Shown here: piece after piece, positions 34,412 through 39,970 of the stretch
Layout: the number at the start of each line of letters is the position of its first letter
Numbering within the stretch: the stretch's first letter is position 1
Source: Acetobacteraceae bacterium
Lineage (GTDB): Bacteria > Pseudomonadota > Alphaproteobacteria > Acetobacterales > Acetobacteraceae
NCBI GenBank assembly: GCA_003506895.1
Contig: DNXO01000034.1
Location: forward strand, 26,569 to 90,568
Direction of reading: 5' to 3'
Length of the DNA stretch: 64,000 nucleotides
Notes under the pieces: generated by a model
Seen by the model: the letters and a program-made list of their open reading frames with translations, nothing else
Told to the model about the DNA's origin: nothing
Database searches by the model: none
Position numbers and translations under genes: made by a program

Positions 34412-34586
34412 GCGTTCGCCTCCGTTACGCCGGCACTTCGGTGGGATCCAGGGGAATGGTTAATTCGTCCCAATCATGATCTGGCCCGAGATTGCCCGTT
34501 TGTCAGTTGCGATAAACCTAGACCGCTTTCGCGACATCGCGCCATGGCAGTGGTATCGATGCGTGCTGCTTCGGTATGGAATCCAA

Positions 34587-35504
34587 ATGACCATGACCTG
34601 GACCCTGGCCAACGCCCCGCGCCTGGACGGCAAGTATGCGATCGTCACCGGCGCGACCGGCGGACTTGGCTATCAAACCGCGCTTGGTCTCGCCCGCCAG
34701 GGTGCCACCACGGTACTTGCGGGCCGCAACGCCGAAAAGGGTGCGCAAGCGATCCAGCGGATCCAGCGCGAAGTAGCCGACGCCAAAGTCCGGTTCGAGC
34801 CCCTGGACCTCGACAGCCTTGCCTCCGCGGCACATTTCGCGGCCACACAACCAGACACCGTCGATATCCTGGTCAACAACGCGGCCGTCATGGGCCTGCA
34901 GCAGCGGGCGCTTACCCGGGACGGCTTCGAACGGCAGATCGGTGTCAACTATCTCGGCCATTTCGCCCTAACGCTTCGCTTGTTCGGCGCCCTGAAAAAT
35001 GGCGGCCGCGTCGTCAATGTCGCCAGCGTCGCGCACCGTCGGGCAGCGCTAAATCTGGCGGATTTCCAGTCCGAAAAGTCCTACGGCCCGATGCGCGCCT
35101 ACGGACGGAGCAAACTCGCCATGCTGATTTTTTCGCTGGAGCTGCAACGCCGCGCCGACCAGTACGGCTGGAACCTTAAAAGCATGGCCGCGCATCCGGG
35201 CTGGGCGCGAACCGACATCATTCCCAACGGCATCGGCGGCGGCGCGCCCGGGCTGAAGGCCCGCATCGCCGCGGCCGGGTTCAATCTGTTTGCCCAATCC
35301 GCCGCCGACGGCGCGCTGCCCATGCTGTTCGCCGCCATGGCGCCCGAGGCACAGGGCGGGGCCTACTATGGCCCGAACGGCCGAGGCGAAATTCGCGGTG
35401 GCCCGGGACCGGCGCAAATCTTCCCCCAGGCCGCGGACCCTGACGCCGGACTCCAGCTTTGGGCGTTGTCGGAACGACTGACCGCCGTGACCGCACGCGT
35501 ATGA
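34587..35504 (+). CDS. Short-chain dehydrogenase/reductase (retinol dehydrogenase-like)
   Basis: TGATGGLG, NNAAVM, YGRSK, HPG. Confidence 0.92.
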   Translation: MTMTWTLANAPRLDGKYAIVTGATGGLGYQTALGLARQGATTVLAGRNAEKGAQAIQRIQREVADAKVRFEPLDLDSLASAAHFAATQPDTVDILVNNAAVMGLQQRALTRDGFERQIGVNYLGHFALTLRLFGALKNGGRVVNVASVAHRRAALNLADFQSEKSYGPMRAYGRSKLAMLIFSLELQRRADQYGWNLKSMAAHPGWARTDIIPNGIGGGAPGLKARIAAAGFNLFAQSAADGALPMLFAAMAPEAQGGAYYGPNGRGEIRGGPGPAQIFPQAADPDAGLQLWALSERLTAVTARV

Positions 35505-35594
35505 GCGGCTGGGTGAGTCTGGCGTTGACTGGCGATCGGCGCCTGGCTTCGGGGGGATGTTATCGCCACCAGAGAAATGGATTTGCAACGATTG

Positions 35595-35736
35595 ATATCC
35601 ACACGACGCCTGCTCCGAGATGACCAATCTGTTATCCCCCGAAGTTGTGGATAAGTCAGTGGGCAATGGCCGTGTAATGCCCTGAAACAGGCCTCCGACC
35701 GGCATATCCTGGATGATGCTGAAAGTTTGTGCATAC
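35595..35736. promoter_or_regulatory. DnaA box cluster
   Basis: ATATCCACA 35595-35603; TTATCCCCC 35632-35640; perfect TGTGGATAA 35646-35654; TGTGCATAC 35728-35736. Confidence 0.7.
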
Positions 35737-35739
35737 CTA

Positions 35740-35752
35740 TAAGTATTTGATT
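35740..35752 (-). promoter_or_regulatory. IHF consensus site
   Basis: Bottom strand AATCAA-ATAC-TTA matches WATCAANNNNTTR exactly. Confidence 0.65.
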
Positions 35753-35786
35753 TTAAAATATTATTACAAATTGTGAACGCGGTTTA

Positions 35787-35801
35787 TTAACGTATTGTTA
35801 A
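35787..35801. promoter_or_regulatory. Perfect CtrA box
   Basis: TTAA-CGTATTG-TTAA. Confidence 0.7.
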
Positions 35802-35838
35802 GCATCGGATTGCCCTGGGGACGGCCGAAACTCCGCGA

Positions 35839-38800
35839 TTACGCCGCAAGCCGATCCGGGGCGACACCGAACAGGAAATCGATGTCGTCGGCATCCATCG
35901 CCGGCAACGCCATGCCGTCCTCGCTGAGTGCCAGCGACGCCAGCGCGGCCTTGCGTTCCTGGAGTTCGACGATCCGCTCCTCCACTGTGTCGGCGGCGAT
36001 CAGTTTGTAAACGAACACCGATTTCGTCTGGCCGATCCGATGCGCCCGGTCCGAGGCCTGATCCTCCACCGCCGGGTTCCACCACGGATCATAATGGATC
36101 ACCGTATCCGCCGAGGTCAGGTTCAGCCCGCGCCCGCCGGCCTTCAGGCTGATCAGGAACAGTGGGACCTCCCCCGCCTCAAACCGCCGCACCGGATCGG
36201 CGCGATCGGTCGTGTCCCCGCGCAGTTCCACGAACGGCACCCCGGCCGCCACCAGCGCCGGCTTCATCAGGTCCAGCATTGAGGTGAACTGCGAGAACAG
36301 CAGAATCCGCCGCCCCTCGGCGATCATCTCGGACACCATCTCCATCAGATCATCGAGTTTGCTGGAGGATGCCGCGACCTCCGACAGCTTCGCCAGCCTC
36401 GGATCGCAACAGACCTGCCGCAACTTCAGCAGCGCCTGCAACACCAGCACATGGCTTTGCGCCACGCCGCGGGCCGCGATGCCCTCGGTGACTTTCTCAT
36501 GCATCGTGGCGCGGATCGCCTCGTAGAGTTCGCGCTGATCCGGCGCCAGGGTAATGCGCCGCAGGATCGTGTGCTTCGGCGGCAGTTCGGTCGCCACCGC
36601 CGACTTCGTGCGACGCAGGATGAACGGACGGATGCGGGTCGAAAGCTGACCACGGCGCACCGGGTCGCCATCCTTCTCGATCGGGGCGCGGAACCGGCGG
36701 TTGAAGCTTTTGCGCGACCCAAGCAGGCCGGGCATCAGGAAGGCGAACTGCGACCACAACTCGCCCAGGTTGTTCTCGATCGGCGTGCCGGACAGGCACA
36801 GCCGGTGCCGCGTCTCCAGCCGGCAGACCGCATGGGTGGCTTTCGATCCGGGGCTTTTGATCGCCTGGGCCTCGTCCAGCACGACCATGTGCCAGGGCAG
36901 CGTCGCCATCTCCTCGATATCACGGGACAGCACGGTATAGGTGGTGATCACGACATGCACGCCGTCCAGGTCCCGGCGCTTTTCGTGGCGGTCCAGGCCG
37001 TGCAGAACGAGTACCCGCAGATGCGGCGCGAAGCGGGCCAGTTCCGCCGACCAGTTCGGCACCAGCGACGTAGGGACCACCACCAGCACCGGCCGGTCCA
37101 TGCGGCCGGAGGCTTCCTCGATCGCGATATGGGCGATGGTTTGCGCCGTCTTGCCCAGACCCATGTCGTCGGCCAGCAGACCGCCCTGCCCGTTCTCCCG
37201 CAGGTGCTGCAACCAGTTGACGCCCTGCTGCTGATAGGGCCGCAGATCGGCTTTGAAGCTGGCGGGAACCGGCGCCTCGGGGATTTCGGACACCGCCCGG
37301 AAGCGGGCGACGTGCTCGATGATCATCGCGCCGTCCTGCCAGCGCGTGGTCACCAGGTCTTCCAGGTCCAGCACATTCGGCGCGGCGGCGGCATCAAGGG
37401 TCAGCGAGTCGCCGTTGGTCCGGGCCGCGGCCTCCACCAGATCATCCATCACCGCCAGTAGGCGGGCGATCCGGTCGGCGGGCAGCTTCAGGATGCGACC
37501 ATCCTCCAGGCTGGTGACGACCTCGCCACCGATGACCCGGGCGGACGCCATCCCGCCGCGCTCGCGCAGGCGCATCAGGATCGGCAGCAGCGGGTGGCGC
37601 GACCCGTCGATCTCGATCCCGAAATCCAGCGAGAACGCGCCCTGCGGCGCATCCGACACCTTCATGTCGCAAAGCCCGACGGACTCCACCAGACGTGGGC
37701 CGAAATCGGTGTCGATCTGGTTGCGCCATCCCAGCGCTTGCAACACCGGCAGGCGGTCGGCGATGAAGCCCTGCCAGGCCTCGGCGGCATCGCGGCCACG
37801 GAAGACGTAAACCAGGCGCCCCTTGGCGACCTTGGCGGTGGCCATGCGCATTTGCACCAGGCCTTCCTGGCGGATCGATTCCAGCGCGGCCGCCTCGGCG
37901 GTGCGGTCACGCCGAGCAAAGACCGGGCCGCCGGGTTCGTTGATGCGGACGAACTGGCGGTCGTCGTCGAACGGGACGCATGTGCCTTCGTAGTCGAACT
38001 CCAGCAACAGGGCGTCCAGCGTCTGCATGCGGCCGTATTCATCGGGGCACGGAAACCGGGTCAGGCGCACCACCGGGGACATCGGACGGTCAACGATGAC
38101 CTGTTCGGTGATGCTGGGCGGTTCGATGCGGCGTTTCAGCGACGGCGGCGCGGGCGGCGGGGCGACAAACGCCGGCCTGGGGGGCGGCGCGGCCGCCTGG
38201 ATCCGCACCCGTCCGACGGCGCCGTTGTCGGCGTCGATGTACCACGGGCCGGAATCCGCCACGATCACGCCGGACCGAGCCGGCAGCGTGGCCGCGGAAG
38301 CCGACGCGAACAGCCGCGTCTCCCCCTTGATCAGCCGCTTGCCGCCGGCATGCCAGCGCGCCTGGCCGCTTTCGATCAGTGCGTCCAGCAGGTCCACGAC
38401 CAACGTCGGCGCGATGCCGGTCTTGGGGTCGTTGCCCTCACCCATCAAGTAGGCGACGTCGCGCAGGGCGGCCGCGGCCTGCTCGTCCTCGGCGATCTGG
38501 CGCGGCGTGGTTGGCGTGGCGATGCCACTGCGCTCGCCGATCAAGACCGTGGTGACGAAGCAGGCGTGCGGGTGGTCCCCGGGCGCCAGTTCGAAGACAA
38601 TCCGCTGACGCTCTTTCTCCGCCGGCTTGGAGGCCAGCGTGTCGAGGAAGGTCTGCTGTTCCGGCTTACGCAGCTCCGGGAACCGGTCGAGCGCGCCGAA
38701 CGCCGCCGCCGCGAGATGGGCACAGCCCGGCATGCGGCAGGTGCAGCGGTGATCGAACACCACGCGGCGCCCAAACAACGATGGGGTGATGGAAACCGTG

Positions 38801-38952
38801 TAGCTGATCGCCCGGTCCTGCACGGTGCCGGTAATGGTTTCCCCGTCCAGCCTGATATCGACGCCCCCCGCCAAGCCCAACGTACGGCCACGGGTTAGCG
38901 CTCGGCCGTCGAAAATGCGGCCCAGGTCCTGGGAGGAGTACGGCGTCGGCAT
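35839..38952 (-). CDS. SWIM zinc-finger SNF2-family helicase/ATPase
   Basis: SWIM CTC-x4-CAH, LADDMGLGKT, LDEAQ, LSGTPIENN, SLKAGGRGLNLT, QASDRAHRIGQ; start MPTPYS at 38952 chosen by eye. Confidence 0.93.
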   Translation of the reverse strand: MPTPYSSQDLGRIFDGRALTRGRTLGLAGGVDIRLDGETITGTVQDRAISYTVSITPSLFGRRVVFDHRCTCRMPGCAHLAAAAFGALDRFPELRKPEQQTFLDTLASKPAEKERQRIVFELAPGDHPHACFVTTVLIGERSGIATPTTPRQIAEDEQAAAALRDVAYLMGEGNDPKTGIAPTLVVDLLDALIESGQARWHAGGKRLIKGETRLFASASAATLPARSGVIVADSGPWYIDADNGAVGRVRIQAAAPPPRPAFVAPPPAPPSLKRRIEPPSITEQVIVDRPMSPVVRLTRFPCPDEYGRMQTLDALLLEFDYEGTCVPFDDDRQFVRINEPGGPVFARRDRTAEAAALESIRQEGLVQMRMATAKVAKGRLVYVFRGRDAAEAWQGFIADRLPVLQALGWRNQIDTDFGPRLVESVGLCDMKVSDAPQGAFSLDFGIEIDGSRHPLLPILMRLRERGGMASARVIGGEVVTSLEDGRILKLPADRIARLLAVMDDLVEAAARTNGDSLTLDAAAAPNVLDLEDLVTTRWQDGAMIIEHVARFRAVSEIPEAPVPASFKADLRPYQQQGVNWLQHLRENGQGGLLADDMGLGKTAQTIAHIAIEEASGRMDRPVLVVVPTSLVPNWSAELARFAPHLRVLVLHGLDRHEKRRDLDGVHVVITTYTVLSRDIEEMATLPWHMVVLDEAQAIKSPGSKATHAVCRLETRHRLCLSGTPIENNLGELWSQFAFLMPGLLGSRKSFNRRFRAPIEKDGDPVRRGQLSTRIRPFILRRTKSAVATELPPKHTILRRITLAPDQRELYEAIRATMHEKVTEGIAARGVAQSHVLVLQALLKLRQVCCDPRLAKLSEVAASSSKLDDLMEMVSEMIAEGRRILLFSQFTSMLDLMKPALVAAGVPFVELRGDTTDRADPVRRFEAGEVPLFLISLKAGGRGLNLTSADTVIHYDPWWNPAVEDQASDRAHRIGQTKSVFVYKLIAADTVEERIVELQERKAALASLALSEDGMALPAMDADDIDFLFGVAPDRLAA

Positions 38953-39063
38953 TGGGGTCGGGGTGGCCTCAGGCAATGGGTCGGGCGCCGAGTCGGGGGG
39001 CGCTCGGCGGGAGCCGTGTGAGTCGCCTGAAGCGGGGCGCGAATGCAAGGCTTCAGTTGCGCC

Positions 39064-39970
39064 CCAGGTCACAGCGGGCGCGTGGCGTTTGGGGCTTTGT
39101 CGTTACGCTGGATCTGAAGGCCTTTTACGCTCGGATCAAAGTCCGCGATAACCATCCCGGACGTCCGGCGGCCGATCCGGCGGTGCTTCTGGCGGTATGA
39201 CTGTATGCCACGCTGGATGGGGTGGGTTCGGCCCGCGCGTTAGAGCGGCTGTGTTCGCACCATGCGGCCTATCGGTGGCTGTGTGGCGGCGTTCCGGTCA
39301 ATCACGACATGCTGTCGGCCTTCCGCCGTGATGGCGGTGCGCTGCTGGATGCGGTGTTGACGCATAGCCTGACCGGCCTGATCGCTGAAGGCCTGGTGGG
39401 TCTGGAAGAGGTTGCGATCGACGGCACCAAGGTTCGGTCCCTGGCGGGACACAGTTCAATGGCGGGACTGGATCGCCTCGCGCGTATCGAGACGCTCGTG
39501 GTCGAGCGGATCGCGGGTCTGAAGCAGGACTTGGACGAGCATGCTGGCAGTGCCGAACGGATCAAGGGCGCGCTGGACCGTCTGGTTGAACTGGAGGTGG
39601 AAAAGGCCGGCGCGCGAAAGCGGACAGGCGCGAAGCCAAGCGCAAGCAGATGGTGTCGCTGCGGGACTTCGAGGTGCGCCGGATGCGGCTAGCGGACGGT
39701 TCGGTGCATCCGGCTTGGACTGTGCCTGTGGCAACGGCCAAGGGCGTCGTGGTGTCGACCGAGCCGACCGATCGGCGCGATGACGGCGGATTGGCGCCCA
39801 GCCCGGTCGAACAGATCATGCGCCGGTGCGGGCAAACGCCGGTTCGCCTGCTTGCGGATGGCACGGCGATGACGGTCCAGGATATCGCCGCGTTGCGGTC
39901 GGTGTGCCACTTCCAGGGCCTCGCGCATAACCTGCTGCATGCTTACGGGCAGCGATGCGTCGCGGCATGA
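39064..39970 (+). mobile_element. Decayed IS1182-family transposase
   Basis: GRPAADPAVLLAV*LYA (TGA 39198-39200), YRWLCGG..VNH..LS.FR, AIDGTKVR; frameshift before VSLRDFEVRRMR; short second half suggests an internal deletion. Confidence 0.85.

Follow-up and report, generated by a model that had tools for sequence, protein, structure and literature searches.

The 334-bp gap at positions 35505-35838 of the window (the whole 64,000-nucleotide stretch of DNA analyzed here), situated between convergent SDR and SNF2 genes, probably constitutes an IHF-dependent and possibly CtrA-gated locus of the DARS2 type that regulates DnaA. Judged from the sequences compared below, we put the probability of this reading at about 55%. 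The evidence comes from the arrangement of the DnaA boxes, the conservation of this arrangement, the gene context of the homologous loci, the presence of separate hemE-linked origins in some relatives, and copy number.

Motifs in the gap between the SDR and SNF2 genes

The initial annotation of this region, made from the letters alone, had listed a set of motifs and offered two readings: a chromosomal origin of replication in a new gene context, or a datA/DARS-like DnaA-regulating locus. Reading the sequence directly, we found every listed motif at the position assigned to it, including the inverted DnaA-box pair with a 5-nt spacer and a perfect second member, the exact IHF consensus, the AT-rich tract and the perfect TTAA-N7-TTAA. 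The two flanking genes are indeed convergent and both end at the gap, and the gap contains a single GANTC as described. One assignment had to be revised: the sequence TGTGCATAC (35728-35736), proposed as a DnaA box, fits better as the right-hand half of a palindrome that is conserved. In addition, two sites were identified that had not been listed, a weak third DnaA box next to the inverted pair and a conserved distal box. The features are as follows (class A denotes the loci of the window lineage, see below).

34476-35504, + strand: flanking SDR gene (Pfam adh_short)
35595-35603, + strand: auxiliary DnaA box ATATCCACA, 1 mismatch
35632-35640, + strand: DnaA box I, TTATCCCCC, inverted with respect to box II, 5-bp spacer GAAGT
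35646-35654, - strand: DnaA box II, perfect consensus, TGTGGATAA on the + strand
35658-35666, - strand: DnaA box III, weak, AGTGGGCAA on the + strand, 3 bp past box II (GTC)
35667-35715, unstranded: spacer whose length is kept and whose sequence is free (at most one 1-nt indel in the class A alignments)
35716-35734, unstranded: conserved palindrome ATGCTGAAAGTTTGTGCAT (TGCCnAAAnTTTnGGCA in relatives)
35738-35772, unstranded: AT-rich tract, 32/35 A+T, only partly conserved in relatives
35740-35752, - strand: match to the IHF consensus WATCARNNNNTTR, read as AATCAAATACTTA
35750-35777, - strand: sigma-70-like promoter match TTCACA-N16-TAAAAT (10/12 positions; 0.4 expected)
35787-35801, + strand: match to a CtrA-type site, TTAA-N7-TTAA, TTAACGTATTGTTAA
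35814-35822, - strand: distal DnaA-like box CCTGGGGAC (CCTGTGGAC/T in relatives), within a block conserved at the right-hand end of class A loci
35839-39072, - strand: flanking SNF2-family helicase gene (Pfam SNF2-rel_dom and Helicase_C)

Box II is one of only 11 perfect DnaA boxes in the assembly, a 5.58 Mb draft in 173 contigs, and it is nearly invariant across more than 40 homologous loci. Box III falls within a conserved 19-mer, TGTGGATAAGTCnGTGGGC, and at the position of the auxiliary box the three closest relatives (loci L026, L027 and L031) carry a perfect TTATCCACA. The IHF consensus and the palindrome lie about 95 bp from the box trio. The palindrome, positioned between the core and the IHF site, may resemble the Fis consensus in its form TGCCnAAAnTTTnGGCA. 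Both the IHF consensus and TTAA-N7-TTAA occur just once in the 64-kb window, in each case within the gap; for the latter, 0.05 matches are expected. The promoter-like match is directed leftward, across the IHF site and towards the box trio, and in the uvrC-linked form of the locus described below this is the direction of uvrC.

The whole assembly contains, besides the 11 perfect DnaA boxes, 30 matches to TTAA-N7-TTAA and 98 to the IHF consensus. Only the perfect box in the window has matches to both other motifs within 350 nt, and we estimate from the assembly counts that about 5e-4 such three-motif co-occurrences are expected by chance. The co-occurrence of these motifs in the gap is real and goes far beyond chance.

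Two short ORFs lie immediately upstream of the SNF2 start (window 39222-39970). One of them gives a weak match to a DUF772 transposase domain, which suggests a remnant of an insertion sequence at the locus edge.

A conserved module with the box geometry of the E. coli DARS loci

As the initial annotation had recommended, the orthologous gap was compared with that of relatives. BLAST analysis against 40 relatives, in which conservation was read from positions 35627-35824, revealed about 70% conservation of this stretch in several genomes of the same genus, and delineated a module of ~200 bp (window 35630-35830) that is conserved across the genus. Its components follow each other in the order inverted box, perfect and weak box, spacer of ~50 nt, palindrome, IHF site, AT-rich stretch and distal box, and these blocks are at fixed distances from one another. 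More than 40 loci share this box geometry with no indel. The invariant 19-mer TGTGGATAARTCNGTGGGC was found, allowing up to one mismatch, in 48 of 77 genomes of the genus, mostly as a single copy. A class-wide sample of 400 other genomes yielded it in 19 (once each, in ~20 genera); the reversed control gave 0 and 1 hits, respectively. Such conservation, far above that of the control, argues for the DARS2-like reading.

The homologous loci can be divided into two classes. In class A, the window lineage, the module is located beside an orthologue of the window SDR gene, on either side of it; these orthologues, which are 62-83% identical, flank most class A modules, which are often followed by an SNF2 3' end (G008, G011, G022, G024 and others). 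No module was found downstream of SNF2 orthologues in named MAGs. In class B, comprising the rest of the genus and other families, the module lies between the divergent start of uvrC and the 3' end of a folB-SDR gene pair. Since the module is uvrC-linked in other members of the genus as well as in other families, the position next to uvrC is taken as ancestral. Class-wide, it is present as a single copy in many alphaproteobacterial families and is usually located upstream of uvrC. In the present genome, uvrC (C34:190-192 kb) and folB (C39) have lost the module.

A constant distance separates box II from the palindrome, both within classes A and B and in other families, and the block TAAnnCATTGATTTT at the IHF site is likewise kept in both classes and in other families. 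The IHF consensus and the length of the spacer are conserved while the spacer sequence is free, a pattern that would be expected of a nucleoprotein complex. The right end of the module differs between the classes. Class A modules carry the CtrA-type sequence GTTAAC-N5-GTTAAC and the CCTGTGGAC box, the former being kept in ~19 of 20 window-type loci and missing from the uvrC-linked loci, and the equivalent end in class B reads GGTGGA(T/C)AAATC. As far as these alignments go, the putative CtrA-type site and the distal DnaA-like box are additions made in the lineage of the window.

A profile HMM of ~200 nt detected exactly two copies of the module in this assembly, one on contig C34, which contains the window, and one on C36 (C36:60611-60814, - strand; locus L015/L017), the latter having been revealed by the BLAST analysis as well. 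The C36 copy has retained an intact core (I-5-II-3-III) and its IHF and CtrA parts are degenerate. It is situated in a gene-poor stretch of ~5 kb with lower GC content, near genes for a phage-type integrase and a sulfate permease. Genome G001 likewise has two copies, and tandem partial copies with the DnaA-box trio, ~300-500 bp apart, are present in G022 (L011, contig C86: 909-1018, 1191-1300 and 1512-1710) and in G003 (L172, contig C1: 9610-9796 and 10172-10302). These copy numbers fit a regulatory locus.

A DARS is located outside oriC and frees ADP from ADP-DnaA, which regenerates ATP-DnaA. It requires three DnaA boxes, two of which (I and II) are head-to-head with the third (III) beside II, and DARS2 requires IHF and Fis sites in addition. 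The sequences of DARS1 (bioD-uvrB gap) and DARS2 (rppH-mutH gap) were taken from E. coli NC_000913.3, and their cores compare with those of the module as follows.

E. coli DARS1: TTATCCACT-ATTCC-TGTGGATAA-CCA-TGTGTATTA
E. coli DARS2: TTATCCCAG-CTTTC-TGTGGATAA-CAT-GGTGTAAGA
Window: TTATCCCCC-GAAGT-TGTGGATAA-GTC-AGTGGGCAA
uvrC-linked form: TTATCCACC-GAATC-TGTGGATAA-GTC-TGTGGGCAA

Ten cores (from E. coli, the window, the C36 copy and four other genera) align gaplessly with boxes I, II and III in register. In the module, boxes I and II are head-to-head and box III adjoins II in the same orientation, with spacers of 5 and 3 bp, and the IHF site demanded by the DARS2 subtype is present at the level of sequence. 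This gapless agreement with DARS1 and DARS2 in box order, orientation and spacers supports the DARS2-like reading, as does the gene context: E. coli DARS1 lies in the promoter region of uvrB and DARS2 in that of mutH, and the module elsewhere lies upstream of uvrC. Box geometry by itself is no proof, because E. coli has 52 similarly arranged box pairs, of which two are known DARS. A second trio with 5- and 3-bp spacing is present in the E. coli rppH-mutH gap itself (L290, 3137-3170), ~320 bp from the DARS2 core; it reads TTATTCACC-TTTTC-TGTGGATAG-AGT-TGTGAAGAA.

We propose that the locus would work in the following way. On boxes I and II, DnaA molecules arranged head-to-head would, with the aid of box III, contact one another via their AAA+ domains and free ADP, and the resulting apo-DnaA would then rebind ATP. 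Bending by IHF would bring the distal box and a factor bound to the palindrome onto the core and so turn its activity on. In the window lineage, binding of CtrA might restrict this activity to part of the cell cycle; alternatively, transcripts that start at the leftward promoter-like site and run across the IHF site could provide the gate. The element would in this way tune the firing time of the true origin and would not itself be an origin. The C36 copy, reduced to a core with degenerate IHF and CtrA parts, may then stand to the window copy approximately as the core-only DARS1 stands to the regulated DARS2.

Origin, datA-type and transcriptional readings

Of the two readings offered by the initial annotation, the DnaA-regulating locus is the one favored here, and that of a chromosomal origin is not. 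According to the latter, the genus would have lost its hemE-linked oriC, and replication would fire from the DnaA/IHF module together with the AT stretch and the CtrA site. We consider this unlikely, although several observations speak for it. The module is the best DnaA-box cluster in the assembly; the better cluster elsewhere that the initial annotation had envisaged as counter-evidence was not found among the closer matches to the box consensus, and the accompanying skew criterion turned out to be uninformative (see below). The hemE gene of the genus is preceded by a TPR gene without DnaA boxes and has a desaturase gene, ruvAB and tolQR as neighbors, not yqfL. In G090 a distance of 40 kb separates the uvrC-linked module from the point opposite dif, and no other TTATNCACA cluster is present within 200 kb of that point; in G089 and in G149, a member of another family, the module is roughly opposite dif. 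Finally, in G092 the skew drops sharply to a local minimum at the module (-0.086 on the left and +0.049 on the right over 20 kb), and its hemE gene is 16 kb away from it.

Other observations stand against an origin. An origin is expected once per replicon, whereas the module occurs twice here and in G001 and recurs in other genomes as tandem partial copies. In G092, which has the only window-type copy located on a near-complete chromosome, the module is 0.45 Mb from dif, and the broad skew minimum, at 0.71 Mb and near the point opposite dif, is devoid of a module. Where the module and parAB share a contig, most near-complete genomes of the genus have them 0.7-1.5 Mb apart, G089 being the exception with a weak copy, reduced to the core, at 75 kb from parB; the module is also far from dnaA in near-complete genomes with both on one contig. 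The boxes are head-to-head, as in a DARS, and not head-to-tail as in oriC. Contig C34 has no sustained skew switch at the site, in agreement with the remark in the initial annotation that a clean switch could not be seen. To uphold the origin, one would have to explain the two copies and to assume that G092 is misassembled or recently rearranged.

The most telling argument comes from relatives. Dense arrays of DnaA boxes are located upstream of hemE in G462, G110 and G413, the last belonging to the same family as the present genome, with parB 3-12 kb away; in G149 the boxes upstream of hemE are weaker DnaA-like ones and parB is 15 kb away. The arrangement in the first three corresponds to the situation in Azospirillum, which has a canonical hemE-linked origin with parAB at ~12 kb. 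The uvrC-linked module is distinct from these hemE-linked regions, at a distance of 30 kb in G149 and 0.9 Mb in G413, and on another contig in G110 and G462. Since it coexists with hemE-linked arrays in these four genomes, the module is not the ancestral oriC, and its coexistence with a separate canonical origin in G462, G110 and G413 lends support to the DARS2-like reading. A dense direct array of DnaA boxes was also seen around a 19-mer match in a distant alphaproteobacterium (L188, G178:C193, ~1440-1560); its boxes, among them TGTGGATAT, TGTGAGCAT, TGTGGAAAA and TGTGGATAA, recur with a periodicity of ~11-12 bp, and this array looks like a true oriC.

As noted by the initial annotation, the marker genes of known origins are outside the window: dnaA is on C40, hemE on C154 and parB on C73. 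We evaluated other candidate origins in the assembly. The region upstream of hemE was rejected, having no DnaA boxes in this genome or in G092 and non-canonical neighbors in both; a hemE-type origin is absent from the genus of the window. The AT-rich rpsT-dnaA gap on C40 also lacks DnaA boxes. A cluster at 19.6 kb on C41 consists of three "boxes" with 1 mismatch each (C41:19640-19735) that are repeated operators, TTGTCGATAA/TTATCGATAAA/TTATCGACAAA, located between an FAH-family gene and a divergent GntR regulator gene. The perfect box at C73:157724, near parB, lies ~80 nt upstream of a gene that, as judged by eye, is bactofilin-like. The assembly contains 442 N runs (median 277 nt, 127 kb in total), and the origin may be hidden under one of them.

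GC skew is uninformative as an origin test in this genus. On C34 the skew is lowest at 132 kb and peaks at 245 kb, a similar pair of extremes is found on C73, and the spacing is ~110-130 kb. Skew does not track gene orientation (r = 0.12), and the profiles of the near-complete genomes G092 and G090, sampled as well as contiguous, are mosaic. Blocks of 100-300 kb with alternating sign, unexplained by gene orientation, were observed on C34 and C73 of this genome (G000), on G092:C1 and on G090:C3. A unique dif-like site with a perfect XerD arm, AAACCGTATAATGAATATTATGTTAAAT, is present at C93:8045-8072, and six relatives in the genus and G149 have unique counterparts. The distance between parB and dif is ~1.0-1.3 Mb in four near-complete genomes of the genus. 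The genes hemE, parAB, dnaA and uvrC are placed differently in each near-complete genome.

Less likely still is a reading in which the genus lost its ancestral hemE-linked origin and a DARS-type DnaA/IHF locus was taken over in its place, the window lineage having left uvrC and gained the CtrA site.

A datA-type sink or inactivator of DnaA, in which the trio and the distal box would be looped by IHF and initiation would be delayed by ATP hydrolysis or titration, is very unlikely. DnaA boxes on either side of a single conserved IHF site at conserved spacing do reproduce the outline of minimal datA, but in its details the core fits the DARS trio and not the box set of datA. The DnaA-regulating half of the initial annotation is favored in its DARS form, on account of the DARS-type trio, its 5/3-bp spacing and the IHF site, rather than in its datA form.

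The least probable reading is a transcriptional control region, i.e. a relocated uvrC-type promoter/operator, bound by DnaA, IHF and CtrA, that would drive a leftward small or antisense RNA: the promoter-like TTCACA-N16-TAAAAT on the - strand and the ancestral position upstream of uvrC would suit it, and DnaA is also a transcription factor in Alphaproteobacteria, but in the window there is no gene downstream in either direction, and no Rfam match, terminator or convincing covariation was detected. Rfam gave nothing relevant for the gap (E<=1) or for five homologous loci (E<=0.1), no terminator was found in the gap, and neither RNAalifold nor single folds yielded a convincing shared structure. 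A structured RNA gene was considered because of an apparent covarying hairpin in the spacer, and was rejected when this hairpin failed in RNAalifold and in single-sequence folds. Moreover, the module is still conserved once parted from uvrC, a point in favor of the DNA module being functional in itself.

Significance and comparison with known systems

DARS and datA are central to the timing of replication in E. coli, and nearly all work on them has been done in this organism. In the Caulobacter-type cell cycle, CtrA, DnaA and IHF meet at the origin. The DARS2-like module described here is a candidate for the regeneration of ATP-DnaA in a cell cycle of that type. It also calls for caution, in that clusters of DnaA boxes with IHF sites and AT-rich DNA in draft genomes can pass for origins. 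If, on the other hand, the take-over considered above were true, the replicator itself would be a former regulator of the initiator.

According to a review, many proteobacterial species have conserved sequences like DARS1 and DARS2, so that the existence of DARS-like loci beyond E. coli is in principle already known. In the literature we found no paper linking DARS to Alphaproteobacteria or to uvrC. What is new here, as predicted from sequence comparison, is the module combining IHF site and palindrome, its class-wide conservation as a single copy, and the CtrA-type site in this lineage.

Among the closest known systems is E. coli DARS2, which has in common with the window the three-box core with 5- and 3-bp spacers. 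In DARS2 as in the module, the core is accompanied by an IHF site and by additional protein sites, which in the module are predicted, and both DARS2 and the ancestral form of the module are non-coding DNA adjoining a DNA-repair gene. The module differs from DARS2 in belonging to a different bacterial class and in having its regulatory part on the box III side and of shorter length. Its palindrome occupies the place of the Fis sites of E. coli DARS2. The window lineage has, unlike DARS2, gained a CtrA-type site and left the linkage to a repair gene.

DARS1 has the same core geometry and lies upstream of an excision-repair gene, just as the alphaproteobacterial form lies upstream of uvrC. Consisting of a core only, without control by IHF or Fis, DARS1 is closer to the degenerate C36 copy than to the window copy.

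The likeness to E. coli datA is one of outline only, namely DnaA boxes plus a single IHF site at conserved spacing. Minimal datA is composed of DnaA boxes 2, 3 and 7 and a single IHF site at a set spacing, and promotes hydrolysis of DnaA-bound ATP; the IHF site is essential, its spacing is critical, and the locus is located outside oriC. The box set and the orientation of the boxes differ from those of the module, whose trio is of the DARS type.

With the oriC of Caulobacter and Azospirillum, located in the yqfL-hemE gap, the gap shares the joint presence of DnaA boxes, an IHF site, an AT stretch and a CtrA-type site. It differs from the Caulobacter-type Cori in that hemE, on C154, is not adjacent, and in that there is one CtrA-type site and one GANTC instead of several. 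In contrast to this type of oriC, the module is present in two copies, and relatives keep a separate hemE-linked DnaA-box array beside it.
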